Notes: a model not told the origin generated them from the letters alone. Positions 15,703-40,873 are shown, counted from the stretch's first letter. The stretch: 64,000 bases of DNA from an uncultured Thermoleophilia bacterium (GCA_963709635.1 CAVPXA010000028.1:70020-134019), one strand, 5' to 3'. Numbers and translations: made by a program.

Positions 15703-16119
15703 TCAGCGCTCGATGACGAACCGCGACGTGATGGGCACGGCGGGCCTGAGCGTGGCTTCGACCGAGCAGTAGCGGTCCTCGGAGAGAGAGATGGCACGCT
15801 CCACCTTGCGCTCGTCGAGGTCGCCCTTGAGGCGGTACACCACCTCCAGCGACGTGAAGCGCTTGGGGTGGTCCTCGGCCCGTTCCCCGCTCACCTCGAC
15901 GTTGAACGACTCCAGCGGCTGCCGCATCTTCACCAGGATCGAGACGACGTCCATGGCGGTGCAGCCGCCGAGGGCCACCGCCAGCAACTCCATCGGCGTC
16001 ACCCCGTTGCCGGGCTCGTCCAGGCCGGAGGCCAGGTCCACGGACCCGTGCGCCGTGGATGCCTCGAACAGCAGTCCCTCGTTCTTCCAGGCGAGCGTCA
16101 CCGGTTCGCTGTGCGCCAT
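15703..16119 (-). CDS. OsmC/Ohr family peroxiredoxin-like protein
   Basis: 138 aa from ATG 16119 (GGAGAGGAGG upstream). GVTPMELLAVALGGCTAMDV ... LSEDRYCSV. Confidence 0.85.
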   Translation of the reverse strand: MAHSEPVTLAWKNEGLLFEASTAHGSVDLASGLDEPGNGVTPMELLAVALGGCTAMDVVSILVKMRQPLESFNVEVSGERAEDHPKRFTSLEVVYRLKGDLDERKVERAISLSEDRYCSVEATLRPAVPITSRFVIER

Positions 16120-16319
16120 CTGACCCTCCTCTCCGCGTCCGCCGTCACGGCCGCCTCGTGGTCCACGATCGTATACGGTGCCCCCAACGCGCCCCCGCGA
16201 ACCGGACTGGATGCGGCGCCGACGACGACGGGCGCCGCCGCGCGAGGTCGGGCAGGACGGCCGAGTCGTATAGAATCGAGGACCCCAGACGGCCCTCAGC
16301 GACCGACCAGGAGTCTCCT

Positions 16320-17405
16320 GTGCGCGACCTCTCACGCGGCGACCGCGGCAAAGAAGTCCTCGACGTCCAGACCCGCTTGCGCGGGCAGGGCTTCGAGCTG
16401 GGCAGAGAAGGCGTCGACGGCTTCTTCGGCCCAAGCAGCGAGGTCGCCGTGCTCGCGTTCCAGCAGGAGCGCGGGTTGCTCGCCGACGGGCGCGTGGGCG
16501 CCAACACCTGGCGCGAGCTCGTGGAGGCCGGTTACGCCCTGGGCGACCGGCTGCTCTACCTGCGCGAACCCCCGTTCCGCGGAGACGACGTGCTGCAGCT
16601 CCAGGTCAAGCTCAACCTGCTCGGCTTCAACGCCGGGGCGGAGCGCGGCGTGCACGACGACGAGGTCGAGCGCGCCGTCCTCGACTTCCAGCGCAACGCC
16701 GGGGTGCCGGCGGACGGCATCGTCGGCGACAGCACGCTCATCAAGCTCGAGGCCGTGCGCAAGGCCGAGTCCGGGCGCGAGGGCAAGAAGATCCCCGAGC
16801 GCGACCGCGGCTGGGTCGCCGCCCGCACGCTCACCGGGCGGTCGGTGACCATCGATCCCGGTCACGGCGGGCCGGACACCGGCTACATCTCGGCGGGCGG
16901 CCTCGCGGAGAAGGACGTCTCGCTGGCGCTCGGCCTCCGCCTGGCCGAGCTGCTCCGCGCCGAGGGCTGCCGCGTGCGCCTCACGCGCGAGACCGACGAG
17001 CGCGTGCCGCTCTACGCCCGCTGCGAGGCGGCCCAGGGCGGCCCGCACGACTTCTTCGTCTCGTTGCACTGCAACGGAGAGGCCTCGCCGGCGGCGCGCG
17101 GCGCCGCCACGTACTTCTTCCAGCGCAGCCACTACTACTCGGAGCACGGCCGGCGCCTGGCCGGATATGTGGGCAGGCGCCTCGAGGCGGCCGGCGCGCC
17201 CTCGCTGGGCCGGTTCGGCCGCAACTACGGTATCCTGCGCGAGACCCGCGCCATCGCCCTGCTGGTGGAGCCGCTGTTCCTCACCTCGCGAGAGGACGAG
17301 GCGCTGGCTCGCCGGCCGGAACAGGTGGAGAAGCTGGCGCGCGCACTGGCGGGAGGCCTGGCCGACTACCTCGCGCGCGTCCCGCTGGAGGACGAGGCCC
17401 CGTGA
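16320..17405 (+). CDS. N-acetylmuramoyl-L-alanine amidase with two peptidoglycan-binding repeats
   Basis: GTG 16320 after AGGAG. Two PG_binding_1-like repeats (GDRGKEVLDVQTRL...DGFFG; GDDVLQLQVKLN...DGIVG). Amidase_3 core IDPGHGGPDTG...SLHCN...LVEPLFLT. Confidence 0.85.
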   Translation: MRDLSRGDRGKEVLDVQTRLRGQGFELGREGVDGFFGPSSEVAVLAFQQERGLLADGRVGANTWRELVEAGYALGDRLLYLREPPFRGDDVLQLQVKLNLLGFNAGAERGVHDDEVERAVLDFQRNAGVPADGIVGDSTLIKLEAVRKAESGREGKKIPERDRGWVAARTLTGRSVTIDPGHGGPDTGYISAGGLAEKDVSLALGLRLAELLRAEGCRVRLTRETDERVPLYARCEAAQGGPHDFFVSLHCNGEASPAARGAATYFFQRSHYYSEHGRRLAGYVGRRLEAAGAPSLGRFGRNYGILRETRAIALLVEPLFLTSREDEALARRPEQVEKLARALAGGLADYLARVPLEDEAP

Positions 17406-18262
17406 CGCCCGACGAAGCCGAAGCCCTGCGCATCCGCCTCACGGCCACGCAGTCGCAGCGCCTGCGTGAGCTCGGCGCCGACCCACTCGTGCTCGACGGG
17501 GCGTTCGCCGACGCCGTCGCTCGCGACGCCGCCTTCAAGCGCCTCGAGACCGACCTCGTGCGCACCGGTCGCGAGCACCTGCGCGAGCTGCGCAAGGGCC
17601 GGCGCGCGCCGCAGCTCGTCGAGCTCGAGCGCGCGCTCAGCGACGCGCTCACCGACGCCGGGTTCGTGCGCGTCGTCACCCCGCTCATCATCGCCTCGGA
17701 CGCGCTCCGCAAGATGGGCATCGAGCACGGCCACCCACTGCGCGATCAGGTGTTCTGGCTGGACGACGGCCGCTGCCTGCGGCCCATGCTGGCGCCGAAC
17801 CTCTACACCCTGCTGCGGCGCCTCGACCGGCACTGGAGCAAGCCGTTCGGCATCTTCGAGATCGGACCCTGCTTCCGCAGGGACAGCAAAGGCGCCAGCC
17901 ACCTCAACGAGTTCACGATGCTCAACCTCGTGGAGCTCGGCAAGCAGGACAAGGACGGCCGCGCCCGGCTCGAGGAGCTGGCCGCCCTCGTCATGGGCGC
18001 GGCGGGCGTCGGTGAGTACGACCTCGAGGTCACGGACAGCGAGGTGTACGGGGCCATGATCGACGTCACCGTGGGCGGAGCCGAGGTGTGCTCCGCCGGC
18101 CTCGGCCCCCATCCGCTCGACGGCAACTGGGGCGTCGTCGACCCGTGGGTCGGCCTCGGCTTCGGCCTCGAGCGCCTCATCATGGCGCGCGAGGGCTATC
18201 CCAACATCGAGCGCGCCGGCCGCAGCCTCAGCTACGTGGACGGCATACGGCTCAATCTCTAG
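17402..18262 (+). CDS. pylS: Pyrrolysine--tRNA(Pyl) ligase, catalytic C-terminal polypeptide (PylSc)
   Basis: 286 aa. CLRPMLAPNLYTLLRRLDR, IFEIGPCFRRDSKGASHLNEFTMLNL, VDPWVGLGFGLERL, C-terminus RSLSYVDGIRLNL. Collinear with bacterial PylSc and the archaeal PylS C-domain as I recall them. GTG start overlaps the amidase TGA (GTGA). TAG stop. Confidence 0.93.
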   Translation: MTPDEAEALRIRLTATQSQRLRELGADPLVLDGAFADAVARDAAFKRLETDLVRTGREHLRELRKGRRAPQLVELERALSDALTDAGFVRVVTPLIIASDALRKMGIEHGHPLRDQVFWLDDGRCLRPMLAPNLYTLLRRLDRHWSKPFGIFEIGPCFRRDSKGASHLNEFTMLNLVELGKQDKDGRARLEELAALVMGAAGVGEYDLEVTDSEVYGAMIDVTVGGAEVCSAGLGPHPLDGNWGVVDPWVGLGFGLERLIMAREGYPNIERAGRSLSYVDGIRLNL

Positions 18263-18367
18263 CGCGCCGCCAGGACTCCGCGGACGGCGGCCTACGTGGC
18301 GTAAGCGCGAGAGGGCGGGCCACCGGCCCGCCCTCTCGCGGTCTCTCGGGACTGCTCGCTGCTCCTG

Positions 18368-19001
18368 TTACTTGCCGAGCAGCGCGTCGATCTTCTTGAC
18401 GCCGTCGTTGGCGTCTTCGGCGTAGGCGTCGGCGCCGATCTGGTCGGCCCAGCGCTGCGTGCACGGCGCGCCGCCGACGACGGTCTTGTAGGAGCAGGCC
18501 CTCGTCCTTGATGCGCTTGATGACCTTCTTCTGCTCTTCCATGGTGGTGGTGAGCAGGGCGCTCATGCCGATGACGTCGGCGTTGAGCTCCTTGGCCTTC
18601 TCGATGAAGGTGTCGGCGGAGACGTCGCGGCCGAGGTCGGTGACCTCGTAACCGTTGGCCTTGAGGTAGGCGATGACGATGGCCTTGCCGATGTCGTGGA
18701 CGTCGCCCTGGACGGTGCCGATGACCATGATGCCCTTGGCCTCGGCGGCCTCGCCCTCGAGGGCGGCGTTGGTGACCTCGGTGGCGCCGGCCATGGCGTC
18801 CGCGCTCATCATGAGCTCGGGGAGGAAGACCTCACCGCTCTCGAAGAGGTCGCCGACCTCCTGGATGCCCTTGACGAAGCCGTTCTGCATGATGTCCGCC
18901 GGCGCGATGCCGGAGTCGAGCGCGCGCTGCGCGATCTCCTCCGATGACGCCCGATCGGCGTTCACGATGCTCTCGGCTGCTTCCTGGTAGATGTCTGCCA
19001 T
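18368..19001 (-). pseudogene. Cobalamin-binding corrinoid protein of the methylamine-methyltransferase type (MttC/MtbC/MtmC-like); 1-nt insertion near 18492
   Basis: ATG 19001 after GGGAGGAG. B12-binding_2 cap followed by GTVQGDVHDIGKAIV (DxHxxG) and DVIGMSALLTTTM. The last 40 aa (YKTVVGGAPCTQRWADQIGADAYAEDANDGVKKIDALLGK, TAA) are in another frame. Confidence 0.8.
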
Positions 19002-19302
19002 GACCCTGGACTCCTCCCGACTTTGCTCACAACTGTTTACCGCGCAACGAGGTATGGCGGGTGCGGAAGTTCGGGCGGTGACGCCGCAAGCCGGAGAAGC
19101 AGTGGACGGCCACACCCGCCCGGACGCTCCCCCGCGCCCATCTTCTGCACGTGCCCGGGAGTATATCAGCCACATGCGCTGTCAACCACAAGTGCACATG
19201 CTCGCACAAGGTCCAACGTCGTGCCGGGCGGGCGCAGCGCCGCCGCCGGGCCCGGCGCCCCTCGGGGCGCGCCGCCCGGCGGTGCATGCTAGCATCGGAC
19301 GC

Positions 19303-20182
19303 GTGAGGTACCACGGCGCCGTCATCCGTCCCCCCAGCGAGGCAGACAGCCTGATCGTGCAGGTCACGTACGGCTGCTCCAACAACACCTGTGACTTCTG
19401 CGGGACCTACCTCGACAAGCCGTTCGCCGTGCGCCCGTTCGACGAGGTCGTCGACGACGTCACCGGCCTCCCCGTCACCGTGCGCCAACGCGTACGGCGC
19501 GTGTTCCTCGCCGACGGCGACGCCCTGGCGCTCAGCACGCGCAAGCTCGACCAGATCCTCGACCTGCTGCACCGCGCGCTCCCCAACCTGGAGCGCGTGA
19601 GCAGCTACGCCAACGCGCGCAACCTGCTGCACAAGTCCGTCGAGGAGCTCGTCGCGTCTGCGCGAGCGCGGCATCGAGCTGCTCTACCTCGGCCTCGAGT
19701 CGGGCGACGAGCAGACGCTCGCCGACATCCACAAGGGCATGACGGTGGCGGAGCAGATCGAGGGCTGCCGGCGAGCCACGGACGCCGGCATGAAGCTCTC
19801 GGTCACCGCGATCCTCGGGCTGGCCGGCCGGGAGCGCTCCCTGGTCCACGCCGCGGCCACCGGCGACGCACTCTCCGCGATCGACCCCGAGTACATCGGG
19901 CTGCTCACCCTCATGCTCACGCCCGGCACCGCCATGGAGCGCAAGGTCGCCACCGGTCAGGTGGTGCTCCCGGACTCCATCGGGATGCTCCGGGAGTTGC
20001 GGGAGATCGTCGCCCACCTCGACGTCACCGACTGCCTCTTCCGCTGCAACCACGCCTCCAACTACCTGCCCATCGGGGGCCGCCTGCCGCAGGACAAGGC
20101 GGCCATCCTGGCCTCGCTCGACAAGGTGATCGGGGCTCCCGCGGCGACACGGCTCCGGCCGGAGAGCTGGCGGCTGCTGTAG
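19303..20182 (+). pseudogene. Radical SAM protein of unassigned function; 1-nt insertion at about 19657
   Basis: GTG 19303. SLIVQVTYGCSNNTCDFCGTY (CxxxCxxC). The junction reads ...VEELVA|LRERGIELLYLGLESGDEQTL, then continues in ORF 19739..20182. TAG stop. Confidence 0.7.
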
Positions 20183-20241
20183 GAGCAGCGCCGGCGGCCG
20201 CGCGCGCGGCCGGCTCCCCCCGCAGCACGAGCCGCCGAGAC

Positions 20242-20571
20242 TCAGAGGTCCCGAAGGTGCGAGCCGTACCCCCGCTTGAACTGGGTGGACGCGTACTTCT
20301 GCAGCTTCCACTCGGGGATGCGGCACTGCGGGCAGGCCTCCGCGTACCACTTGTTGCGCAGCCAGCGGGCGGCGCGGCTCGTCTTGGAGTCGTGGACCAC
20401 CATGTGCTTGTTGCAGTGGGTCACCACGACGGCGTAGGAGCCGCGCTCCTCGAACTGCTTGATCCCGTGCAGGATGCCGCGCCGCGACGGCCACAGCTTG
20501 AGCTTCTCGACCAGCCGGAAGAGCGGGACCTGCTTGCGGTAGTAGCGCGCTTTGGTGGGGTCGGTCGGCAT
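20242..20571 (-). CDS. pylSn: Pyrrolysyl-tRNA synthetase N-terminal tRNA-binding polypeptide (PylSn)
   Basis: 109 aa from ATG 20571. LWPSRRGILHGIKQFEERGSYAVVVTHCNKHMVVHDSKTSRAARWLRNKWYAEACPQCRIPEWKL aligns with archaeal PylS residues LWMSRTGTIHKIKHHEV...[31 protein letters not shown], including the Zn Cys/His positions. Confidence 0.85.
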   Translation of the reverse strand: MPTDPTKARYYRKQVPLFRLVEKLKLWPSRRGILHGIKQFEERGSYAVVVTHCNKHMVVHDSKTSRAARWLRNKWYAEACPQCRIPEWKLQKYASTQFKRGYGSHLRDL

Positions 20572-20697
20572 CGGGAGGGCCAGTCTAGCACGGCCGCCCG
20601 CGGCGCCCGCCGCGGCCGCGTCCGGCCGGAGACGGGCAGGACGCGGCACCACCGCGTCGAAGGTTCGGCAACGACCAACTCCGACCCGAGGTGTCCG

Positions 20698-21633
20698 ATG
20701 ACCCGTCGCGCCGCAGCCGGCCTCGGCCGCCTGCTACCGCTCCTGCTGATCGCCGCGGCCGTCGTCGTCGTCACCGGCGCCGCCCTGCTCGCCGCCTGCG
20801 GCGGCTCGTCCGGCGGCGCCTCTCCCGAGCCGCTGGAGACCACCACCGTGACGGCCTCGGGGAGCGGCACGGCGGAGCCGACGGTCACGCCTTCCACGTC
20901 CCCGTCGACGGCGCCGGCCGAGACGGCCCTGCGCATCTACTTCTTGCGCGGCGAGCAGCTCGGCGTGGCCGAGCGGCGGGTCCCGCACACCAGCATGCCG
21001 GCCACGGCCGCCATGGAGGCCCTGCTGGCCGGCCCGACGGCGGCGGAGAGCGCCGCCGGCCTCGGCACCAGCATCCCCGCCGGCACGCGCCTGCTCGGCC
21101 TCAGCATCAAGAGCGGCACGGCCGATGTGGACCTCTCCGGGGAGTTCGGCAGCGGCGGCGGCACCCTGTCCATGACCTCCCGCGTCGCGGAGGTCGTCTA
21201 CACGCTCACGCGGTTCCCGACGGTCCGCGCCGTCCGGTTCCTCATGGACGGCGAGCCGCTCGAGGCGCTCGGCGGAGAGGGCATCGTGCTCGCCGAGCCC
21301 CAGCGCCGCGCCGACTGGCGCGAGTTCGAGCCCAACATCTTCGTCGAGACACCCGGCGCCGGCGCCGTCGTCTCGAGCCCGTTCCTGCTGTCCGGCACGG
21401 CCATGGTGTTCGAGGGCTCGTTCCAGGCGCGCCTCGTCGACTCGTCCGGCCGGCGCATCGTCAACGTCATCATGCAGGCGAGCCGCGGCGCTCCCGGCCG
21501 CGGCCGGTTCGCCAAAGATGTCGCCTTCTCCACCTCCGCCAAGCGCGGCACGCTGATCGTGTTCGACCAGTCCATGGAGGACGGCTCGCGCCAGGACGAG
21601 GTCGAGATCCCCATCACGTTCGCGACCGACTGA
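20698..21633 (+). CDS. Lipoprotein with GerMN domain and Gmad2-type Ig-like domain
   Basis: ATG 20698. Lipobox LLAAC. LRIYFLRGEQLGVAERRV...MEALLAGPT...VDLSGEF...VRFLMDGEPL, then IFVETPGAGAVVSSPFLLSGTA...TLIVFDQS. Confidence 0.7.
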   Translation: MTRRAAAGLGRLLPLLLIAAAVVVVTGAALLAACGGSSGGASPEPLETTTVTASGSGTAEPTVTPSTSPSTAPAETALRIYFLRGEQLGVAERRVPHTSMPATAAMEALLAGPTAAESAAGLGTSIPAGTRLLGLSIKSGTADVDLSGEFGSGGGTLSMTSRVAEVVYTLTRFPTVRAVRFLMDGEPLEALGGEGIVLAEPQRRADWREFEPNIFVETPGAGAVVSSPFLLSGTAMVFEGSFQARLVDSSGRRIVNVIMQASRGAPGRGRFAKDVAFSTSAKRGTLIVFDQSMEDGSRQDEVEIPITFATD

Positions 21634-21935
21634 CGCGGCGCACCCGAGTCACCGGCCCGCGGCGCCGATCTCCCTCACGCTAGTCCAGCTCACGCCCGCG
21701 CCGCTGCACGAGCGGCAGCACGTACCACAACGCCACGAGCCAGGCGGCGATCGCCGCGCCCGCCACGGAGACCCAGGTCGCTTTGAAGAGCATGCGTCGA
21801 CACGTTCCTTGTGATCCTCGGCCACGGCGTGCTCCCGCGATGGATGACGACGGGGTGATGTTCCCCGGACAGGGCGAGACGCGCGGTGCGTGCCGTAAGA
21901 GCGTGAGAGGAGAGAGCGGACGCTGGAGAAGAGGC

Positions 21936-22008
21936 TGGCGGGGAGTGCGGGAGTCACACCCGCCTACGTGGGTTTAGAGCCCACGCTGATCCTTCCGATC
22001 GACCCCCC
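21936..22008 (-). tRNA. pylT: tRNA-Pyl (anticodon CUA)
   Basis: Hand-folded 73 nt: GGGGGGU-C-GAUC-GGAAG-GAUC-AG-CGUGGG-CUCUAAA-CCCACG-UAG-GCGGG-UGUGACU-CCCGC-ACUCCCC-G-CCA. Features: 7-bp acceptor stem with one G-U, a single nt between acceptor and D stems, 5-nt D loop, 6-bp anticodon stem, 3-nt variable loop, T loop without the TPsiC consensus, encoded CCA. These are the tRNA-Pyl hallmarks. Confidence 0.88.
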
Positions 22009-22018
22009 GCGCCCCGCG

Positions 22019-22024
22019 ATTGTA
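22019..22024 (-). promoter_or_regulatory. Candidate -10 element (TACAAT, preceded by TG) for a dedicated pylT promoter
   Basis: Minus-strand ggTGTACAATcgcggggcgc followed by the tRNA 5' G. 10 nt separate the hexamer from the mature 5' end. No convincing -35. Confidence 0.25.
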
Positions 22025-22142
22025 CACCGGACGCGCCGGTGGGTCCGGACGCGGACCAGCGGGCCGTTCCGGCCGCGCGCCGGAGTCGCCGGCGAAGGGC
22101 GGCGCGCGTCGGCGCGGACGACGAGGCGATGGGTGGCGCGCG

Positions 22143-22949
22143 TCAGAGCAGCGCGCGCGCCACCATGACCGCCACGCCGAGCGCGAGCGGCTCGTGCATG
22201 TGGGTCACGCCGAGGACCTCCTGCGCCGCGGCGGTGAACGCCGACGGCATACCGGGGACGGCGGCGATCATCCCCGGACGCACGTCGGCGACGTCGATGA
22301 TGCCGGCCGCCGGGCAGGCGTCGAAGACGAGGTCGCAGCGGGCCAGTCCCTCGGTCAGGCCGGTCTCTTCGAACAGAAGGCCCACCTCTCGCGCGGCAGC
22401 GACGCGCTCCGCGTCCGGCTCGACCACGAGGACGCCCGCGTCACGGGCGGTGAGGCGCCGCACGGCGGCGCGCCCCACGGGACCGAGCCCCAGCACCAGG
22501 ACTTCCCGGCCCGCGAGACCGCCGGAGGCCGCATCGAGGGCGGTCACGTACCCGTCGGCCGTCGCGGGGTCGTCGTCCGTGCTGCGGCCCTTGGTGACGT
22601 TGAGCGCGATGAAGCGGTGGTCGTCGGCGAGAAAGACCACCTGCGCGCCGGCGCCCACCGCCGCCTGGATGCCGCGCACGTCCGGCTGCGTGGTCGCCCA
22701 CGCGTCGCAGCCCAGGTGCAGCAGGGTGGCCACGACGCAGGCCGAGAACCCGGTGATGACCCCCTGGCCGGTGGAGATGGGCACGGCGGCGACGCGCGCG
22801 CCGTGCAACTGCACGCAGCGCTGGTCGTCGACCACGGTGCGCAGCGCGAGGTCGCGCAGCCCGAGCCCGGTGGCGTCGCGCAGACGGTCCTCGACGGCGA
22901 CGAGCTCGCTCGTCAGGTCGGCGACGTCCGCCTCGGTCAGTCGTGTCAT
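22143..22949 (-). CDS. pylD: Pyrrolysine synthase PylD (3-methylornithyl-N6-lysine dehydrogenase)
   Basis: 268 aa. MTRLTEADV..., VPISTGQGVITGFS, FLADDHRFIALN, Rossmann VLVLGLGPVGRAAV, C-terminal EPLALGVAVMVARALL. ATGA overlap with pylC. Confidence 0.9.
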   Translation of the reverse strand: MTRLTEADVADLTSELVAVEDRLRDATGLGLRDLALRTVVDDQRCVQLHGARVAAVPISTGQGVITGFSACVVATLLHLGCDAWATTQPDVRGIQAAVGAGAQVVFLADDHRFIALNVTKGRSTDDDPATADGYVTALDAASGGLAGREVLVLGLGPVGRAAVRRLTARDAGVLVVEPDAERVAAAREVGLLFEETGLTEGLARCDLVFDACPAAGIIDVADVRPGMIAAVPGMPSAFTAAAQEVLGVTHMHEPLALGVAVMVARALL

Positions 22950-24187
22950 CGAAGTCCTCCCTCACCCGGAGTCGCCGTCTCGTCCGCGGCAGCCGGTCGC
23001 AGTCCTTCGTGCCGCGCCAGCTCGGCGACCACATCCGCCGCGCGGATGCGCGCCTCGCTCAGGCCGGGGGCGGCGACGATCAGCGTCGCCGACCAGCCGG
23101 CGCGCCCCGGCGCGTAGTCCGTGAGCGCCTCGTCGGCGCCGAAGAAGCCGGGCACCAGGCGCAGCGGCCCGGCGCTCCCCATCACGTGCTCGCCGAGGAC
23201 CTCCAGCATACCTCGCGAAGCGCGTACATGCTGGTACACGCACGCGCGGCGCGGCGCGCGGTCCACCTCCGGCGGCGCGCCCTCACGCACCGTCCTCTCC
23301 AGCAGTTCGACGATGTTGAGGCCGCTCGACCAGTACACCGCCGTCGGAGTCTGGCTGGGCAGGCGCGCGTCGATCTCCAGGAGCTTGGGGTCGGCGCCGC
23401 GGACCATCACCTCCACGTCCATGAGGCCGTTGAGGCCAAGCCCCTCGGCGACGCGCACCGACGCCGCGTCGAAGGCGTCGAGCACGCCGGCGGCGACGGC
23501 GGCGTCCCAGTCGCAGGCGCCGCCGGGGCCGGCGCACGCCGTCTCCCCGGCCGTCTCGCCCACGGGGGCGACGACGCGGCGGCAGTCGTAGGCCGCGTCG
23601 AACTCGAGACCTGTGACCTGGAGCGGTACGGCACGGCCGCCCCAGGCGAGCACCTCCAGCGAGAGCGACGGGCCGGCCACGTACTCCTCGACCACCACGT
23701 CGTGGCCGCGGCGCTCCAGCTCGCGCCGCGCCGCGGCCAGCGCGGCCTCGTCGTGCACCACGGTGACGCCCTCGCTACCGCTCGCGGTGCTGGGTTTGAC
23801 CACCGCGGGGAACCCGCACGCGGGCCAGTCCAGCGGGCGCGGCACGTCCAGCTCGGCGAACAGCCGCCGCGAGGCCAGCTTGGACGCGGTGACCCGGTAG
23901 GAGTCGAGGTCGAACAGCAGTGGCACGCCCCAGCCGGGCACGCGCTCGGCCAGCCAGGCCAGCGTGGCCTCGTCCTCGAACGCCGGCAGCACGGCGTCGC
24001 AGCTCGTCACGAGGTCGCGGAAGAGGCTCTCGTCGGCGGTCACGTCCACGACGACGTGCCGGTCGGCGAGCCCGGATGCCGGCGGCTCCTCGCGCCGGTC
24101 CACGAGCACGGTCTCCCAGCCCGCCTTGCCGGCGAGGTACGCGGCCTCGGTGCCCTGCAGCTTGCCGCCGACGATCAGGAGGCGCAC
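22946..24187 (-). CDS. pylC: 3-methylornithine--L-lysine ligase PylC (ATP-grasp)
   Basis: Start taken at GTG 24187 (VRLLIVGGKLQGTEAAYLAGKAG), 5 nt after the pylB stop. ATP-grasp core FPAVVKPSTASGSEGV...VVEEYVAGPSLSLEV. The ORF-track extension to 24445 overlaps pylB. Confidence 0.9.
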   Translation of the reverse strand: MRLLIVGGKLQGTEAAYLAGKAGWETVLVDRREEPPASGLADRHVVVDVTADESLFRDLVTSCDAVLPAFEDEATLAWLAERVPGWGVPLLFDLDSYRVTASKLASRRLFAELDVPRPLDWPACGFPAVVKPSTASGSEGVTVVHDEAALAAARRELERRGHDVVVEEYVAGPSLSLEVLAWGGRAVPLQVTGLEFDAAYDCRRVVAPVGETAGETACAGPGGACDWDAAVAAGVLDAFDAASVRVAEGLGLNGLMDVEVMVRGADPKLLEIDARLPSQTPTAVYWSSGLNIVELLERTVREGAPPEVDRAPRRACVYQHVRASRGMLEVLGEHVMGSAGPLRLVPGFFGADEALTDYAPGRAGWSATLIVAAPGLSEARIRAADVVAELARHEGLRPAAADETATPGEGGLR

Positions 24188-24191
24188 ACGC

Positions 24192-25265
24192 TCACCGGGA
24201 GGCCGCGGCGGAGGCCGGACTGCGCACGACGGCCATCCGTTCGCGGTACTCGTCCACGCCGGCCGGACGCAGGCCGAGCCGCTCCAGGTGCGGCAGCACC
24301 CCGTGCACGGTGCGGTAGCCCTCGTCGATGTCGAGCTCGGCCTGCGAGACCCCGGCGAGCCCCATGGTGGGCGGCACGATCGACGTGACCACGTTGGCCC
24401 CGGCCTGCAGGCGGCGCTCCAGGCCGGCGATGCCGTCCACGTCAAGCGACGCCGGGATGAACCTGTCCGGCATCGCCAGCCGCAGGCAGGCGATGGTGAG
24501 CAGCTCGTCGGCGTCGCCGGCAGGGTGCACGTCCTCGAGCGGTGTACCCGCCTGGGGGACGAACGTCATGACCCGCACCTGCTCCCAGCCGGCCTCGCGC
24601 ATGGCGACGATGGAGCCGGCCCGGTCGGCCGGCGTGTCGCCGATGCCGGTGAGCAGGCCGTCCTCCACGAGCAGGCCCGCGCGCCGGGCGGCGGCCCGGG
24701 CGCCGGCGCGCGCCTCGAAGGGCTGCCCCACGCGCAGCCGGTCGTAGAGCTCGCGCGTGTGCGTCTCCTGGTACAGCGCGTACCAGTCGGCGCCCGCGCC
24801 CGCGAGCTCCCCCAGCGACTGCTCCGGCAGCACGCCCGGCGAGACCATGACCGGCGCGCCCGTCGCGTCCACCACGGCGGCGACGAGGTCGACGAGCGTG
24901 GCGGGTTCCGCGAGGACCACGGGGTCCTCGCCCATGGTCAGGTCGAGCAGGACGACGCCCGAGCCCGCGAGGTCGCGGCAGATCTCCACCACCTCGTCCG
25001 TGGTCTTGCGGTACCTCGGGCACTCGTCGTTGTCGGCGCGGTAGAAGCAGAACGCGCACGCGTTGCGGCAGTAGGTGGAGAAGTAGACGAACCCGTAGAG
25101 GAACACGGCGTCGCCGGAGTGGCGCGCGCGCAGCTCGCGGGCCGCGGCGAAGACCAGCGGCGCCTCGTCGCCGGCGCGCAACAGCGCCTCGAGGTCGTCC
25201 CTGTCCGGGACGGCGCCCGCGAGGATGTCGGCACAGAGGCCGGCGACTGAACGGCTGCCGGTCAT
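24192..25265 (-). CDS. pylB: Methylornithine synthase PylB (radical SAM lysine mutase)
   Basis: 357 aa. FVYFSTYCRNACAFCFY, DLTMGEDP, ALYQETHTRELYDRLRVGQ, VEDGLLTGIG, VRVMTFVPQAGTPLE, FIPASLDVDGI..GANVVTSIVPP. Collinear with archaeal PylB. Confidence 0.92.
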   Translation of the reverse strand: MTGSRSVAGLCADILAGAVPDRDDLEALLRAGDEAPLVFAAARELRARHSGDAVFLYGFVYFSTYCRNACAFCFYRADNDECPRYRKTTDEVVEICRDLAGSGVVLLDLTMGEDPVVLAEPATLVDLVAAVVDATGAPVMVSPGVLPEQSLGELAGAGADWYALYQETHTRELYDRLRVGQPFEARAGARAAARRAGLLVEDGLLTGIGDTPADRAGSIVAMREAGWEQVRVMTFVPQAGTPLEDVHPAGDADELLTIACLRLAMPDRFIPASLDVDGIAGLERRLQAGANVVTSIVPPTMGLAGVSQAELDIDEGYRTVHGVLPHLERLGLRPAGVDEYRERMAVVRSPASAAASR

Positions 25266-25269
25266 GGGA

Positions 25270-25932
25270 TCAGCGGAACTCGAGGACGTCCGCGAGCGGG
25301 TGGCGGCTGGTCGGGCGGGGCGGCGTGAGCGGCCGGCCGATGGGCACCACGGCGACCAGGTGCAGCGGGTCCTGCACGCCGAGCAGAGTCTCGATGGCAG
25401 GCGCGGCGAGCACTGGCGCCGTCATCCAGCACGAGCCGTAGCCCATGGCGTGGGCCGCGGTGCAGAGCAACTGGACCGCGGCTCCGATGCTCTGGATGTC
25501 CGGCCGCTGCCGCAGGCGGTCGCGCTCCTCGTAGGGCAGCTTGTGCTTGTACAGCAGCACGTCGGCGAGCGACCGGTACGGCACGCCGAACACGGCCACG
25601 ACCAGCGGGGCCTCGGCGAAGAACGTGGCGTAGGTGCGGTATGCCTTGAGCTCCTTGCCGCGGCCCTCGGCCTCGGGCCACGCCGCCATCTCGTCGATAG
25701 CGGCGTCGACCGCGTCCTTCATCGCCGCGCGCGCGGCGGCGTCCTCGACGGCGATGAACCGCCAGGACTGGGCGTTGCCGGCGTTGGCGGCCCTGATCGC
25801 GAGCCCGACCATGGCCTCGACGTGCTCGCGCGGCACGGGGTCGGGCGCGTACTTGCGCACGCTCGACCGGCCATGGACGGCGTCCGCCAGACCGGTGGTC
25901 TCGAGGCGGGATCTGCTGTGGTGGGCGCTCAC
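25270..25932 (-). CDS. Nitroreductase-family flavoprotein
   Basis: 220 aa. RSSVRKYAPDPVPREHVEAMV..AIRAANAGNAQSWRFI. Its stop is only 4 nt before the pylB ATG. Confidence 0.85.
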   Translation of the reverse strand: MSAHHSRSRLETTGLADAVHGRSSVRKYAPDPVPREHVEAMVGLAIRAANAGNAQSWRFIAVEDAAARAAMKDAVDAAIDEMAAWPEAEGRGKELKAYRTYATFFAEAPLVVAVFGVPYRSLADVLLYKHKLPYEERDRLRQRPDIQSIGAAVQLLCTAAHAMGYGSCWMTAPVLAAPAIETLLGVQDPLHLVAVVPIGRPLTPPRPTSRHPLADVLEFR

Positions 25933-25990: not shown

Positions 25991-26011
25991 GGTCCGTCCG
26001 TGCCTCTCGCG

Positions 26012-26281
26012 TCAGCCGCCGGAGATGGGCGGCACGATCTTCAGCACGTCGCCGTCCTTGAGCTCGGCCTCCAGGCCGCCGGCGAGCTTGATGTTGCGCC
26101 CTCCGACGAACACGCCGGCGTACATGCGCCCGTCTTCACGGTAGACGCGCTGGCGCGTGCTCGGTTCGAGCTCGATGGCCTTGTCCAGCGCCTCCTGCAC
26201 GGTCGCGGCCTCGACCTCGACCTCGGTGCGGCCGCTGCCGGTCGCCATGCCCGCGGGCAGCTTGACGGAGACCCTGGCCAT
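26012..26281 (-). CDS. MoaD/ThiS-family ubiquitin-like sulfur-carrier protein
   Basis: 89 aa ending ...DGDVLKIVPPISGG (C-terminal Gly-Gly). The ATG lies 1 nt after the ferredoxin stop. Confidence 0.75.
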   Translation of the reverse strand: MARVSVKLPAGMATGSGRTEVEVEAATVQEALDKAIELEPSTRQRVYREDGRMYAGVFVGGRNIKLAGGLEAELKDGDVLKIVPPISGG

Positions 26282-26282
26282 G

Positions 26283-26801
26283 TCAGGCGCCCGCCTCCCC
26301 CGCGGCGACCACGAGCGTCTTGTCCTGCTTGTCGACCTTGAGGTCGACCGCGAAGACGTACTTGTTCTGGCAGAAGGCGATGCACTGCGGCTCGCCGTCG
26401 CACAGGTCGCACTTGAAGGCGACCTCACGGTCGGGGTGCTCGTGGATGACGCCCGTGGGGCACACCTCGTAGCACTCGCCGCAGTTGGTGCACTTCTCCT
26501 CGTCGACGACGAGGACGAAGCCCTCCATCGACTCGCCCACCTTCTCCTTGCTCTCGAAGAAGCCCTTGGGCGTCACCGTGATCTGCTTGGTGACGATGGC
26601 GTCGTTGGGACACGCCTGCTGGCACTTGGCGCAACCGGTCTGCAGGCAGGTGTGGCCCTTGATCTCGGTGGTGGTCGGGTTGCACTCGGAGTACAGGCGC
26701 GCGACCGACGGACGGTAGGCGCCCTCGTGGTAGGCGGAGCACGCCAGCTCGCACATGTGGCACCCGGTGCACTTCTTCCTGCTGATCATCACGTGTGGCA
26801 T
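26283..26801 (-). CDS. 4Fe-4S dicluster ferredoxin-type subunit associated with AOR
   Basis: 172 aa. CTGCHMCELAC, CAKCQQACP, CTNCGECYEVCP, CDLCDG..QCIAFC. Confidence 0.85.
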   Translation of the reverse strand: MPHVMISRKKCTGCHMCELACSAYHEGAYRPSVARLYSECNPTTTEIKGHTCLQTGCAKCQQACPNDAIVTKQITVTPKGFFESKEKVGESMEGFVLVVDEEKCTNCGECYEVCPTGVIHEHPDREVAFKCDLCDGEPQCIAFCQNKYVFAVDLKVDKQDKTLVVAAGEAGA

Positions 26802-26813
26802 CGGATTCCCTTC

Positions 26814-28603
26814 CTAGAGGCGGACGTCGACGCCGAGCTCGGCGAGTTTTTCTTCGGTCGGCACACCGCTCTCGTCCCAGCCGCGGAGGCTGTAGTACTC
26901 CTGCGTCTTCTCGGCGAAGGTCTCCTTGCCGATGAGACGCCCGGCGGACGGGCCCTTCTTGTGCGGCCTGGTGAGCAGCAGTTCGGGCAGGTAGTCGTCG
27001 GCGGCCGTCATGCCCTCGCGAAGATTGAAGAGGCGGCCGAGGTTCCAGACGCGCTCGCCGGCCAGCGCGAGCTCTTCTTCCGTCACGTCGCGCTTCCAGA
27101 CGTGCTTGAACAGCTGGCTCATCTGGTTGAGGTCGATCGCCCAGAAGTCGCACCAGATGCCGAGGTACTTCATGGAGCTGAAGTTCTGGCCGTTGATGTT
27201 GTAGGCGGCCTTGCCCTCCATGGTGTCGGCAGGCTCGTCGCCGGTGATGATCTCGTCGCCCACCGGATACGAGCGCATGTGGCAGCCGCCCCGGTCGGAC
27301 GTGGAGTACGAGAGGCTCATCCCGAACGTGCCACGCGGGTCGTAGCCCGGCAGCTCGAGGTTCTTGACCTCCATCGCCAGCTCGGGGGCGCCGTACTTCT
27401 CGGCGAGGTGCTTCGAGCCGAGCGCCAGCTCTTCGCCGATGCCCGTGCGCGTCGCCATGAGCTCGGGCGCCTTGAGATAGCCGTCGACGTCGCCGAAGCG
27501 CACGCCGAAGTCCTTGATGCCCTTCTCGGTGAGGTCCATGGCCAGGCCGAGCACGGATCCGGACGAGATGGTGTCCATGCCCCACTCGTCGCACAGCTCG
27601 TTGAACTTGACCAGCGCGGCGATGTCGCCGATGCCGCAGTTGGCGCCACAGAGAGCGATGGTCTCGTACTCCGGACCCTCGCCCATGACCGTCTTGCCGT
27701 CGAGTTCGACACTGTGGACGTTGCGGCAGGCGATAGCGCACTGGTAGCAGGCGCGCTTCTTGACGCGGATCTTCTGGAACGACTCGGAGTTGATGTTGCC
27801 GGCGTCCTCGAACTCGCCCTCGGACCAGTTGCGCGTGGGGAACGCGCCGGCGCCGTTGACCAGGTCGACCAGGACGGGCGTGCCCTCCTCATGGACCCAG
27901 TAGTTGTCGTCGGTGAGGACATACTCCTCGTGGATGCGGTAGAGGTCGGCGAGGAAGCCTTTGGCGTCGCCGACCGTCACCGAGCCGGTGCCGCGCACGG
28001 CGACGGCCTTGAGGTTCTTGTCGCCCAGGAGGGCGCCGTGACCGCCCCGGCCGGCCTTGTGGTACTGGTCGGTGGAGACGCAGGCCCACGGGAGCTTCTG
28101 CTCACCGGCCGGGCCGATGGAGAGGACCTTGGCGTTCTCGTCGAAGTCGTCGCGCAGCGCCTGCTCGATCGCCGACGTCTTCATGCCCCAGTACTTGGGC
28201 TGCGCCGGCAGGAAGCTGACCACGTCGTCCTTGATGGTGACCACGGTGGGCTCGGGCGCGCGGCCCTTGATGATGACCAGGTCGTAGCCGGCGAACTTCA
28301 GCTCGGGCGCGAACGAGCCCCCGACGTAGCTGTCGTTGAGGACGCCCGTGACCGGGCTCTTGCAGCCCACGATGAGCCGGGACGACGTGCTGACGTTGGT
28401 CCCGGCGAACGGGCCGGTGACCAGGAACACGGGATTGTCCTCGGACCAGGGTCGAGCCCCGGCGGGATCTCCTCCCACATGTAGCGAAGCAACAGGCCCT
28501 TGCCGCCGATGTAGCGCTCCGCCCATTCCATGTTGAGCGGCTCGACGGTCGAGGTGCCTGCGCTCAGGTCCAGCCTGAGCACCTTGCCCTGGTAGAAGTC
28601 CAC
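26814..28603 (-). pseudogene. Aldehyde:ferredoxin oxidoreductase (tungsto/molybdopterin AOR family); 1-nt deletion near 28449
   Basis: GTG 28603 after AGGAGG (VDFYQGKVLRLDLS...ERYIGGKGLLLRYMWEEIPPGLDP) is in ORF 28298..28681. The rest is in ORF 26814..28844 (FLVTGPFAGT, GLVMDsimilar core, CYQCAIAC, DRGGCHMRSY). TAG stop. Confidence 0.88.
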
Positions 28604-28708
28604 TGCGTCCTCCTGAAGACGTGCGAATAGGTTCGCCGCGTTCCCCCCCGGAGATCCGCGACGGCTCCAGCCGCGGACCAAGGAGAACGTGGGAGTACAG
28701 GCCCAGCC

Positions 28709-28738
28709 ATTCTAGCGGACCCGCGGCCGGCGCGGCAA
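28709..28738 (-). promoter_or_regulatory. Candidate sigma-70-type promoter of the AOR operon
   Basis: Minus strand TTGCCG-N18-TAGAAT, about 105 nt upstream of the AOR GTG. Confidence 0.3.
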
Positions 28739-28854
28739 TGCCGTGAAAGCGCCGGAATGCAGGGCAAAACGGAGTCTGACCGCGCCTCCGCTTGGCCATT
28801 CTGGCAGGTGGCCGGGCATACTGTCGGGTGCGCCTGCGGCTCACCCGACGAAGA

Positions 28855-31250: not shown

Positions 31251-32523
31251 CTAGAGAAGCTCGCGCGGGTCGGTGATCTCGCCGGCCACGGCCGAGGCGG
31301 CCGCGGTAGCCGGAGATCCGAGGTAGATGGAGGCCTCAGGGTTGCCCATGCGGCCGTGGAAGTTGCGGTTGGCGGTGCTGATGCACACCTCGCCGTCGGC
31401 GAGGATGCCCTCGTGGATGCCGACGCAGGCGCCGCAGCCGGGGTTGGTGATCACGGCGCCGGCGTCCCAGAACACGTCGAAGAGGCCTTCGGCGGCGGCG
31501 GCTCGCGCGGTGGCCTGCGAGGCCGGCGTGACGATGAGGCGCGTGCCCGGGGCGCGGCGGCGACCCTTGAGCACGCGCGCCGCCGAGCGCAGGTCCTCGA
31601 GGCGGCCGTTGGTGCAGGTGCCGATGAGCACCTGGTCGACCCTGGTGCCCTTGAGCTCCGCCGCCGGCGGCCGTGTTGTCCACGGTGTGCGGCTTCGCCA
31701 CCGTGGGCACGATGGCGCCGAGGTCGAAGCGCACGACGCGCTCGTAGGACGCGCCGGCGTCCGCGGCGAGGGGCTTCCACGCGTCCCCGCGGCCCTGCGA
31801 CTCGAGGTACGCGCGCGTGGCCTCGTCGCTCGGCATGAGGCCGCACTTGGCGCCGGCCTCCACGCTCATGTTGCTGAGGGTGAGCCGGCCGGGCATGGGC
31901 ATGGCGTCGATGCCCGGCCCCCCGAACTCCAGCGCCTTGTAGGTGGCGCCGTCGGCGCCGAGCTGCCCGATGAGCGTGAGCATGAGGTCCTTGGCCTCCA
32001 CGCCCTCCGCGAACGCGCCCTCGACCTCGATGCGGAACGTCTCGGGCACGCGCAGCCAGGTCTTGCCGGTGGCCATGCCCACGGCGACGTCGGTGCTGCC
32101 CATGCCGGTGCCGAACGCGCCGAGCGCGCCGGCCATGCAGGTGTGCGAGTCGGCGCCGATGACGAGGTCGCCCGGCTTGGCGTAGCTCTCGGCGACGCGC
32201 TGGTGGCACACGCCCATCTCGACGTCGCTCAGCGTGGCGCCGGACTCGGCGCAGAACGCGCGGATGGTCTTCTGCGCGTTGGCGAGCTCGCTGCGCGGCG
32301 CCGGCGCCGCGTGGTCGATGAAGAACACGCACTCCGGCGCCTTGACCCTGGCGGCGCCGAGCTCCTGGATCTGCTGGATCGCCAGCGGGCCGGTGCCGTC
32401 CTGGGCGATGGCGACGCTCACGTCGCAGACGACGATCTGGCCGGGCGCCACGGCGTCCAGCCCGGCCGCCCCCGCCAGCAGCTTCTCCGCGAGGGTGGCG
32501 GCGCCGGCGAGGGCTCGGTGCAC
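31251..32523 (-). pseudogene. LeuC-type large subunit of an aconitase-superfamily dehydratase; indel near 31660
   Basis: IDHAAPAP, GADSHTCMAGALGAFGTGMGSTD (ORF 31336..32523), then [13 protein letters not shown]...GCGACVG...[12 protein letters not shown] (ORF 31251..31631). TAG stop. Confidence 0.85.
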
Positions 32524-32544
32524 GTCGGCTGCTCCTCGCGGCTG

Positions 32545-33805
32545 TTACGTCGCGGCTCCCGGGGCCGGGGCGGCCGGGCCTCACCGGCGGGCTGCGCCGA
32601 ACGGCTGTTGCCCATGGGCACGGCGTCGCCGAGGTGGCCCAGGTAGTCCTGGTAGATGTACATGAGCTCCTTGTCGAACAGCGCCCGCTTGAGCTCGATG
32701 GCCGTCTTGCGCACGAGCGCGAGCACGCCGTCGCAATCCTCCTGCGTGAGCTCCAGCCCGAACTCCTGGAACTTGCGGTAGATGGTGCGCGAGCCGGAGT
32801 GCTTGCCCACCACGATCTGGCGCTCGAGCCCCACGTCCTCGGGCGCGAACGCCTCGTAGTTGAGCGGGTTCTTGATGACGCCGTCGGCGTGGATGCCGCT
32901 CTCGTGGGCGAACACATTGGTGCCCACGATGCTCTTCCACGCCGGGATCGTCCGCGCCGACGCCGCGGCGACGTACTCGCTGAGCTCGCGGAAGCGGCTC
33001 GTGTGCAGACCGACGTCGACCTTGCCGAGGTACTTGAGCGCCATCGCCACCTCCTCGAGCGCGGCGTTGCCGGCGCGCTCACCGAGGCCGTTGACGGTGG
33101 TGTTGACGTAGGTGGCGCCGGCCTTGATGCCCGCCAGGGCGTTGGCCGTGGCCATACCGAAGTCGTCGTGCGTGTGCATCTCGATGTTGAGGCCCTCTTT
33201 GATGAGGAACGTGATGACGTTGTAGGTGTCGAAGGGGTCGAGGATGCCGAGCGTGTCGCAGAAGCGCAGCCGGTCGGCGCCCTCCTCCTTGGCGGCCTGG
33301 CCGAAGCGCAGCAGGAACTCGAGGTCGGCGCGCGAGGCGTCCTCGGCGTTGACCGAGACGTAGAGGTCGTGGTCCTTGGCGAACGCCACGCACTCGCGGA
33401 TCTGGTCGAGCACCCACTGGCGCGACTTGGCGAGCTTGTGCTCGATGTGGATGTCGCTGGCCGACATGCTGATGGCGACCGCGTCGACGCCGCAGTCGAT
33501 CGAGTGCTGACGTCCTCGATCACGGCCCGGTTCCAGGCGAGGATCGAGGTGTCGAGCCCGAGCTCGACGATCTCCTTGATGGTCGTCTTCTCGTCGCCGC
33601 CCATGGCCGGGATGCCGACCTCGATCTGGTGGACGCCCACCTCGTCGAGCAGCTTGGCGATGCGGATCTTCTCGTGGTTGCTGAAGACCACGCCGGCGGT
33701 CTGCTCGCCGTCGCGGAGGGTGGTGTCGTCGATGCGCACGGCCGGCTCGGCCGGGCGCCTCTGCGGAGCGATGACGAAGCTGGAGAGATCGCTGGTCATG
33801 GTCAC
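32545..33805 (-). pseudogene. NifV/LeuA-family 2-oxoacid:acetyl-CoA synthase (homocitrate / Re-citrate / citramalate synthase type); deletion near 33507, 3' end uncertain
   Basis: ATG 33805. IDDTTLRDGEQTAGVVFS..EKIRIAKLLDEVGVHQIEVGIPAMG, then (other frame) HSIDCGVDAVAISMSASDIH...EMHTHDDFGMATANALAGI...VNGLGERAGNAALEE. The open frame runs 105 nt into the next gene. A TAA at 32545-32547 or a TGA at 32581-32583 in other frames would be a natural end if there is one more indel. Confidence 0.78.
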
Positions 33806-33848
33806 CTGCCTCGGAGGGTCGAAAGGGTCACTGGTCTGTGGGGGTGGG

Positions 33849-36850: not shown

Positions 36851-36893
36851 CTCCGGTGCCCCGCTCGATAGCCCGCTGCGGTCGCTGTTCACC

Positions 36894-39879: not shown

Positions 39880-40005
39880 GCAGACGGCCGGCGCGCAGGG
39901 CGCGGCACCGGCACGCGAGGGCCGGGATGCCTGCAGAGGCATCCCGGCCCTCGTCGTCTCAGGAGCGGATGGCGGCCCCGGCTGCGCCCGGCCGCCCTCC
40001 GCGGC

Positions 40006-40812
40006 TCACCAGTCGGAGAACCCGGTGTTGTACCAGATCTTCTTGGTGCCCTTCTTGGCGCGCTTCTCCCACTTCTTGGTCTTGGGCTCGCGGTCGATGC
40101 GCGCGCGGACCTCGTCGGCCTTCTGCTTGATCTTGGCCTTCTGCTCGTCGCTGAGCGCGTCCACGCCGTCGACGTGGTCCTTGACGCGGTCGAGGTTCGT
40201 GGTCGCGGTGTACCAGAAGCCCCAGTCGTCGGCGAGACGCCGCGCGACGTAGCCCTCATTGACCTTCTTCGTGTCGTCCTCGCCGAAGTCGGCCACGGTG
40301 AAGAGGTACTCGATGTCCTTGAGGTCCTTGTCGTTGATCTCCCAGATCTGCAGCTTCTGCAGCATGATGTCGGCGAGCGAGACGCTCCAGGGGTCGAGCT
40401 CGAGACGGCCGTCGTAGTTGATCTCGTGGCAGTAGTCGAGCTTGTCGAAGAAGATGTCGATCATGGGGACCTTGCCGCCGAAGTAGATCTGGCGGGTCTG
40501 GCCGGTCATCGCCATGGTCTGCAGGTCGTTCTCGTAGCCGAGCGACTCCATCAGCTTGCCCATGCCCTTGCGGCCCTTGCCGTAGACGGCGAAGTCGATG
40601 TCGGTGAAGTAGCGGTCGCCCAGCCGCTCGAGCTTCGCGTACAGGTCGACCTGGTCCGGGAAGTAGTAGTGGAGCGCGAGGGGGCCCATGACGCGCATGA
40701 TGATGCCCTGCTGCTGCGCCGCTTCCGCGATGCGCTTGCCCTCGTCGAGGAAGACCTCAGGCTTGGGATAGCGGTCGAGCGGGATGTCCTTCGGCAGGAT
40801 GAACTGTCCCAT
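40006..40812 (-). CDS. Hypothetical protein, possible nucleotidyltransferase fold
   Basis: 268 aa intact ORF, Lys/Asp/Trp/Tyr-rich. GPLALHYY...RYFTDIDFAV resembles an NTase G-x-A...D-x-D motif. No family recognised with confidence. Confidence 0.55.
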   Translation of the reverse strand: MGQFILPKDIPLDRYPKPEVFLDEGKRIAEAAQQQGIIMRVMGPLALHYYFPDQVDLYAKLERLGDRYFTDIDFAVYGKGRKGMGKLMESLGYENDLQTMAMTGQTRQIYFGGKVPMIDIFFDKLDYCHEINYDGRLELDPWSVSLADIMLQKLQIWEINDKDLKDIEYLFTVADFGEDDTKKVNEGYVARRLADDWGFWYTATTNLDRVKDHVDGVDALSDEQKAKIKQKADEVRARIDREPKTKKWEKRAKKGTKKIWYNTGFSDW

Positions 40813-40873
40813 CTGTGTCTATCGCCCCCTTCCGGGTTCGGCGTCGTGTAGAAGACTGGAGTCTACGCTCGAC

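Follow-up and report, generated by a model that had tools for sequence, protein, structure and literature searches.

Does a set of pyrrolysine (Pyl) genes scattered over both strands of a high G+C locus still amount to a working system, and if so to which bacterial lineage does it belong? The locus in question lies in a 64,000-nucleotide stretch of DNA from an uncultured Thermoleophilia bacterium (GCA_963709635.1, CAVPXA010000028.1:70020-134019), the whole of which is referred to here as the window. A preliminary description made from the sequence had proposed a complete but scattered cassette for making pyrrolysine and inserting it at UAG codons, in an apparently undescribed configuration and on a Bacillota-like background. 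Our analysis indicates that this is very probably a working and vertically inherited pyrrolysine system of a member of the Thermoleophilia, a class of the Actinomycetota, with its genes apparently distributed over at least five separately promoted units. The system itself is a known one, of which this is a little-described member, and its layout is clade-wide rather than an oddity.

The pyrrolysine gene set is complete and intact

Proteins were assigned using NCBIfam equivalog models with their curated cutoffs, the best match in the PDB serving as a second line of evidence. The catalytic subunit of pyrrolysyl-tRNA synthetase (PylRS) is encoded by pylSc (17402-18262, + strand), which specifies 286 amino acids (aa) between a GTG start and a TAG stop, scores 320 bits against TIGR02367 (PylS_Cterm, cutoff 178) and finds its best PDB match in the PylSc of Desulfitobacterium hafniense (3DSQ/2ZNI, a full-length match of 315 bits); the NEFTMLN and VYG motifs are retained. 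The tRNA-binding N-terminal subunit is the product of pylSn (20242-20571, - strand, ATG at 20571, 109 aa), scoring 127 bits against TIGR03912 (PylS_Nterm, cutoff 51) with PylSn of Methanosarcina mazei (5UD5, 54 bits) as best PDB match and the four aligned Cys/His/Cys/Cys positions kept. None of the other four Pyl proteins is as well conserved as PylSn, which is 92-96% identical among relatives. In the bacterial PylSn + PylSc class the two halves are found on distinct genes (Guo et al. 2022, PMC9630628) and both halves are present in the window as distinct genes.

The remaining three genes lie together on the - strand. The 3-methylornithyl-N6-lysine dehydrogenase gene pylD (22143-22949, 268 aa) scores 189 bits against TIGR03911 (cutoff 150), with the next model reaching 30, and its top PDB match is PylD of Methanosarcina barkeri (4J43, 97 bits). 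The 3-methylornithine--lysine ligase gene pylC (22946-24187, GTG start at 24187) matches TIGR03909 with 338 bits in two stretches (cutoff 248) while other ATP-grasp models score at most 39; the protein of 413 aa exceeds the 374-position family profile and is collinear with its relatives over residues 1-411, and 4FFL (170 bits) is its top PDB match. Methylornithine synthase, a radical S-adenosylmethionine (SAM) lysine mutase of 357 aa with the motif CRNACAFC, is encoded by pylB (24192-25265) and scores 435.5 bits against TIGR03910 (cutoff 348) as compared with 97.5 for HydE, 77.5 for BioB and 52.7 for ThiH, with M. barkeri PylB (3T7V, 285 bits) as top PDB match and the CxxxCxxC motif kept.

The preliminary description had placed all five Pyl proteins at these positions and its assignments are borne out, every model being above its cutoff and Pyl enzymes being the best PDB matches throughout; PylB did not score better as BioB or ThiH and PylC was not a generic ATP-grasp protein. 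Measured against clean assemblies, none of the five open reading frames (ORFs) is broken or shortened, nor is the tRNA, and the pyrrolysine gene set in the window is complete. Following the established Pyl pathway, PylB would convert lysine to 3-methylornithine, PylC would ligate this to a second lysine, and PylD would oxidise the PylC product, which would then cyclise to pyrrolysine. PylSc, aided by the separate tRNA-binding PylSn, would charge tRNA-Pyl(CUA) and the charged tRNA would decode single in-frame UAG codons.

A tRNA-Pyl with the hallmark fold

The sole tRNA called by ARAGORN in the whole window is a tRNA-Pyl with anticodon CUA (pylT, 21936-22008, - strand), in agreement with the preliminary description. 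Its predicted fold has an acceptor stem of 7 bp followed by a single base and then a 4-bp D stem closed by a loop of 5 nt; the anticodon stem has 6-7 bp and the variable region 3 nt, so that the short D loop, one-base spacer, long anticodon stem and short variable region of the Pyl-type fold are all present. The T loop reads UGUGACU, without T-Psi-C, and both G73 and CCA are encoded in the gene. A scan of the whole window with Rfam at gathering thresholds gave zero matches, and in the tRNA region at E<=10 the tRNA-Sec model alone was returned, with a sub-threshold 28.8 bits, the general tRNA model not being reached; atypical tRNA-Pyl are usually missed by that general model. ARAGORN also called a tRNA-Pyl at the matching place in every related locus covering that spot except one (L016), and the tRNA-Pyl of the relatives comprise six sequence variants with two compensatory pairs.

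The lineage is Thermoleophilia and the system is probably inherited within it

A scan of one genome per GTDB species yielded 26 related loci (designated here, with other relatives, by L numbers) with PylSc 68-89% identical to that of the window, and all of them come from metagenome-assembled genomes (MAGs) titled Thermoleophilia, Actinomycetota or Actinomycetes. In a large protein collection the best 120 relatives of PylSc are 79-100% identical, and the NCBI names among them are 'pyrrolysine--tRNA(Pyl) ligase large subunit [Thermoleophilia bacterium]' or '[Actinobacteria bacterium]'. The flanking genes (TldD/PmbA, a helix-turn-helix (HTH) protein, amidase, nitroreductase, ferredoxin and aldehyde:ferredoxin oxidoreductase (AOR)) are syntenic in the relatives with 63-95% aa identity, and the window therefore belongs to the Thermoleophilia lineage. 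The Bacillota-like background that had been proposed does not hold, given that 26 of 26 related GTDB loci are from Thermoleophilia or Actinomycetota and share these flanks. The window carries ordinary chromosomal genes (cysS, gltX, rlmB-like, a sigma factor, gatCAB and icd/leuB-like) and its composition is uniform, with a G+C of 0.63-0.76 in 2-kb windows and third-position G+C (GC3) of the pyl genes, at about 0.89-0.96, equal to that of the rest of the genome. The stretch 40000-46000 has the lower G+C of 0.63-0.65 with an ORF GC3 near 0.97, and its family matches are one weak metallophosphatase and one partial amino-acid permease.

The ratio of non-synonymous to synonymous substitution rates (dN/dS) is 0.06-0.10 for pylSn and 0.16-0.38 for the other pyl genes, and the pyl genes are under purifying selection. 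Their synonymous divergence (dS) of 0.27-0.77 is comparable to the 0.42-0.55 found for TldD in the flank. Outside the clade the nearest PylSc sequences are one cluster at 65% identity, and the nearest named ones, from Eubacterium limosum, an uncultured Desulfovibrio and Acetohalobium arabaticum, are about 50% identical. This pattern fits one old acquisition followed by vertical descent within the clade.

The gene order is shared across the clade and suggests several transcription units

The genes are ordered TldD, HTH, amidase, pylSc (+), corrinoid protein (-), radical SAM protein (+), pylSn (-), GerMN lipoprotein (+) and pylT (-), continuing into pylD-pylC-pylB (-), nitroreductase, ferredoxin and AOR. 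As had been claimed, this differs from both pylTSBCD and pylT-pylSc-pylBCD-pylSn, the two halves of the synthetase are encoded separately by convergent genes with 2 kb between them, and pylT is located after pylD. The further claim of an undescribed configuration stands in so far as no searchable paper deals with the layout, but it is not a peculiarity of this genome, the order being identical in all 20 of the GTDB loci that reach far enough and additionally in L030, L031, L033 and L034. Differences among the relatives are limited to unrelated insertions.

Extended -10 boxes conserved among the relatives precede several of the genes. That of pylSn (TGCTAGACT, 20590-20582, -) lies 10 nt ahead of the ATG and is kept in 23 loci, and at this distance the pylSn mRNA is probably leaderless. 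The box of pylT (TGTACAAT, 22026-22019, -) lies exactly 10 nt ahead of the tRNA 5' end and is kept as TGTACAAT/GTAGAAT in 23 loci amid diverging flanks, so that pylT would be more than the tail of the pylBCD transcript. The radical SAM gene has its box (TGCTAGCAT, 19287-19295, +) 7 nt ahead of the start and kept in 24 loci, and that of the nitroreductase gene (TGGTACACT, 25947-25939, -) is 6 nt ahead of the start and kept in 16 of 17 distinct sequences from relatives. The TGA stop of the amidase gene overlaps the GTG start of pylSc (GTGA), a 4-nt overlap seen also in L030, L031 and L033-L035. The nitroreductase stop lies 4 nt ahead of pylB, and in clean assemblies (L030) nitroreductase, pylB, pylC and pylD overlap by 4-13 nt. 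Taken together, the conserved boxes and gene overlaps lead us to infer that the locus is read as separate and mostly leaderless units, namely amidase-pylSc, pylSn, radical SAM, corrinoid protein, nitroreductase-pylBCD and pylT.

Candidate targets of pyrrolysine insertion in relatives

In the MAG GCA_040768465.1 a pyl locus laid out like that of the window (L030) is accompanied by a second island on another contig (L032) with the order TetR-mtbB(TAG354)-corrinoid-MttB-like-mttB(TAG328)-mtbB(TAG354)-corrinoid. Each of the two mtbB genes is interrupted in frame by one TAG, at codon 354, and mttB by one at codon 328. When TAG is read through, the two mtbB products give single full-length matches to TIGR02368 (510 and 521 bits, cutoff 369) as does the mttB product to TIGR02369 (740 bits, cutoff 525), whereas the MttB-like paralogue without TAG does not match these Pyl-type equivalogs in this way (300 bits). 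The TAG at codon 328 of mttB aligns with X334, the pyrrolysine of M. barkeri MttB (7XCL). A matching methyltransferase island, with TAG354 in mtbB twice and TAG328 in mttB, is carried on contig L027, and among 120 listed mtbB relatives at 58-92% identity most are called at 351-356 aa, calls whose ends mark the conserved in-frame stop.

The targets of the system would thus be dimethylamine and trimethylamine methyltransferases (mtbB and mttB) in a separate island, as seen in the relatives and presumed for the window genome. The methyl groups would probably enter a tetrahydrofolate route (FTHFS, FolD) encoded 25 kb away. Genes at 46238-53312 (-) encode a NuoF-like flavoprotein with 2Fe-2S domains, FolD, a formiminotransferase-cyclodeaminase-domain protein, FTHFS and a LarC-like nickel-insertion protein, a group which suggests a tetrahydrofolate-linked one-carbon route in an anaerobe.

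An identical corrinoid protein is encoded twice in GCA_040768465.1, in the L030 pyl locus and as the last gene of the L032 island, and the gene is covered by a repeat of 739 bp at 99.9% identity (L030:9979-10717 = L032:9979-10717). In the low-coverage contig L035 the island runs via this repeat into pylSc, a join that is either a chimera or a real (recombinant) variant. The variable insertions of the relatives were also considered as a site for the methyltransferases, and were found to hold instead a SAM methyltransferase, an aminotransferase, a dehydrogenase and an ECF sigma block.

Alternative explanations

Several observations speak against a working system of the kind proposed here. MttB, MtbB and MtmB were not found in the window by Pfam and NCBIfam searches of about 55 ORFs or by a search that translated TAG as an amino acid, and no gene with a conserved in-frame TAG and no methylamine methyltransferase was seen in the window or within 10 kb of pylSc in the relatives; the targets are therefore shown only in relatives with PylSc about 83% identical (L030). 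A simple sigma-70 scan of 17.0-26.4 kb gave no full promoter, promoters having been called solely by conserved -10 boxes. The tRNA-Pyl of five relatives (L001, L003, L005, L026 and L021) carries a C.A mismatch (C26, A40) in its anticodon stem, at a position where the tRNA of the window has U26-A40. Finally, the corrinoid gene of the window has, relative to L006, a 1-base insertion at about 18493, and the radical SAM gene is thrown out of frame by another at about 19657; were these insertions real, part of the locus would be in decay in this genome.

The frameshifts inside the locus and the lack of a Pyl-dependent target gene within the window would also be expected of a decaying relic, in which the genes are recognisable and the system is dead. 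We consider this very unlikely, because neither the tRNA nor any of the five pyl ORFs is damaged, because dN/dS is 0.06-0.38 and because the single-base insertions occur in an assembly in which housekeeping genes are likewise broken: FTHFS (in at least three pieces), gatA, leuC-like, folD, feoB and larC are split or truncated in the window. Many related loci from long-read MFD MAGs show similar breaks in other genes, and assembly error is the likeliest cause of the two frameshifts. Sites with broken or part-matched genes were noted at 50636-52367, 31336-33827, 35571-36893, 48799-49830 and 61361-63187, and an HMGL-like gene is also affected. It is similarly improbable that the locus is an island recently acquired from the Bacillota, which would explain the GerMN protein, the spore-type amidase and the likeness to Desulfitobacterium. 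The best solved relative of PylSc does come from D. hafniense and there are GerMN and CwlD/SleB-like matches, however the G+C and GC3 are those of the genome, the dS of the pyl genes equals that of flanking TldD, and the 20-kb neighbourhood is syntenic across species with PylSc down to 68% identity. With the nearest named outside PylSc only about 50% identical, any transfer would be ancient and would predate the clade.

A complete Pyl system together with the archaeal precedent cited in a preprint could point to genome-wide reassignment of UAG to pyrrolysine, as has been proposed for some archaea, and the apparent own or housekeeping-linked promoters of pylT and pylSc would suggest constitutive expression. 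This has very little to commend it when stop codon usage is considered, as the stops of 50 confident window genes are 41 TGA, 8 TAG (including cysS and pylSc) and 1 TAA, the next in-frame stop after the TAG stops of the window lies anywhere from 4 to 568 codons away, and orthologues swap TAG and TGA freely (TAG/TGA 21/11 in pylSc, 14/9 in the radical SAM gene and 8/7 in AOR). Genome-wide reassignment is thereby excluded and UAG is still an ordinary stop, so that pyrrolysine insertion would compete with termination as in other Pyl bacteria. It is hardly conceivable, lastly, that an assembly or binning artefact has joined different organisms. The assembly is rich in indels and the L035 join shows that a 739-bp repeat can mislead assemblers, but the same gene order recurs in more than 20 independent assemblies (long-read MFD, short-read digester and lake MAGs, and JGI/ENA contigs of up to 2 Mb) and composition is uniform across the window. 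A working pyrrolysine system inherited within the Thermoleophilia thus remains by far the most probable explanation.

Interleaved and flanking genes

The genes interleaved with the pyl genes had been described as unrelated to them. Their identities as corrinoid protein, radical SAM protein and GerMN lipoprotein hold, while the lack of relation does not extend to the corrinoid protein, whose intact orthologue passes TIGR02370 (223.8 bits, cutoff 215.3) and is duplicated beside mtb/mtt genes. The window gene (18368-19001, -, 210 aa) encodes a probable methyltransferase-cognate, MtbC/MttC-like corrinoid protein; its frameshifted ORF scores 186 against the same cutoff of 215.3 and the protein is 97.6% identical to the intact orthologue over the 169 residues compared. 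No equivalog cutoff is reached, with scores of 213 for MtbC (cutoff 350) and 206 for MtgC (cutoff 310). A -10 box (TATACT, 19165-19160) and a leader of about 158 nt precede the gene (19002-19165, -), with blocks conserved in 18-21 loci, and this leader is a candidate regulatory RNA. Invariant blocks GCUUGCGG, CGCCAUACC and GGGAGGAG flank a variable hairpin, and CGCCAUACC is complementary to GGUCAUGGC at the start codon. No Rfam match was found for the leader at E<=10, the RNAalifold consensus was weak (-14 kcal/mol, no net covariation support), and a hand-picked outer stem holds in close relatives only.

The radical SAM gene (19303-20182, +, GTG at 19303, 292 aa) is transcribed divergently from the stand-alone corrinoid gene and encodes an unusual cluster motif, CSNNTCDFC (CX4CX2C). 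Its intact orthologue matches Pfam Radical_SAM with 61 bits and no other Pfam domain. No NCBIfam equivalog was matched, the nearest models being the radical SAM halves of B12-dependent enzymes; the protein covers only positions of about 200-390 of HpnJ and similar models (50 bits, cutoff 578), and neither Pfam nor NCBIfam detects a fused N-terminal B12-binding domain in this protein of 292-314 aa. Among solved structures there is no informative relative, the best being 9ccb with 26 bits. The corrinoid protein, the radical SAM enzyme and the 158-nt leader could conceivably form a new accessory or regulatory module of Pyl-dependent methylamine metabolism, an idea we regard as speculative and rather unlikely; such a module might be a two-component cobalamin-dependent radical SAM enzyme, or else a new leader RNA tuning the supply of corrinoid protein. 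Synteny across the clade was considered and rejected as proof of a functional link, because the whole 20-kb neighbourhood including its housekeeping genes is equally syntenic and synteny cannot tie the interleaved genes to Pyl.

The GerMN (Germane) and Gmad2 lipoprotein (20698-21633, +; PF10646 86.8 bits, PF10648 68.2 bits; lipobox LAAC) is encoded by the fastest evolving gene in the block, with a dN/dS of 0.32-0.53, and we know of no link between such a protein and pyrrolysine. Upstream of pylSc an N-acetylmuramoyl-L-alanine amidase with PG_binding_1 and Amidase_3 domains was identified with NCBIfam (16059-17405, +), the true start of which, to judge from the 362 aa of the clean orthologue, probably lies near 16300. 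At the other end a nitroreductase-family flavoprotein (25270-25932, -, GTG at 25932, 220 aa; Pfam Nitroreductase 111 bits) with weak similarity to BluB and to the C-terminal part of FbiB heads the pylBCD operon clade-wide; to our knowledge no nitroreductase-type partner has been described for pyrrolysine synthesis. Further along (26011-28844, -) AOR ends in TAG with the ferredoxin gene next in frame, and a ThiS/MoaD-like gene ending in GG follows the pair. A read-through fusion of AOR and ferredoxin was ruled out since the spacing between them varies in relatives and they are hence two genes.

Significance and comparison with known pyrrolysine systems

The locus places pyrrolysine firmly in a third large bacterial phylum, the Actinomycetota, as a clade-wide trait of uncultured Thermoleophilia. 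Two Actinobacteria have been counted, without detail, among 81 bacterial PylRS genomes (Guo et al. 2022, PMC9630628), and this count is the only mention in the searchable literature, where pyrrolysine in Thermoleophilia and the layout found in this lineage are not described. The claim of an undescribed host in the preliminary description was accordingly overstated, with NCBI already naming the proteins, although it is right that the lineage has no searchable paper. Thermoleophilia bearing pyl genes are common in public metagenome assemblies, and the methyltransferases for dimethylamine and trimethylamine that accompany the trait suggest that methylamines are consumed in those habitats by an organism other than a methanogen. 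For code engineering the locus provides a natural PylSn/PylSc/tRNA-Pyl set suited to about 71% G+C and actinobacterial leaderless promoters. For annotation it illustrates that a Pyl system need not be an operon or adjoin its targets, which matters for automated detection.

The closest comparison is with the D. hafniense type (pylT-pylSc-pylB-pylC-pylD-pylSn), with which the locus shares the split synthetase, a PylSc collinear over the full length, a tRNA-Pyl with G73 and CUA, the order and tight coupling of pylBCD and the use of TAG as a normal stop. Unlike that type, the genes of the window lie on both strands in at least five units, pylT follows pylD with what appears to be its own promoter, pylSc is coupled translationally to a cell-wall amidase, a nitroreductase-family gene heads pylBCD, corrinoid, radical SAM and GerMN genes are interleaved, and the host is an actinomycetote of about 71% G+C. 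From the named PylSc of Bacillota and Desulfobacterota that of the window is set apart by an identity of only about 50%.

Compared with pylTSBCD of Methanosarcina, where PylSn and PylSc are fused, the five protein functions and the tRNA are the same, the M. barkeri enzymes are the best PDB matches for PylB, PylC and PylD, and the targets, as seen in the relatives, would likewise be MtbB and MttB with UAG at the homologous position. In contrast, the window comes from a bacterium, its synthetase is in two parts and its pyl genes are not gathered into one operon, and the methyl groups would presumably pass to tetrahydrofolate and not to coenzyme M. Acetohalobium arabaticum, whose code expansion depends on the carbon source and whose pyl genes lie beside mttB/mttC, resembles the present case in that bacterial pyrrolysine is tied to a trimethylamine methyltransferase and corrinoid protein and TAG is also a stop, whereas the methyltransferases of the Thermoleophilia clade are in a separate island and only the duplicated corrinoid gene is shared with the pyl locus. 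The Methanomassiliicoccales (delta-PylSn class) also have dispersed pyl genes and in this respect, as in the window, the genes do not form one compact operon; that class is however without PylSn, which the window has.

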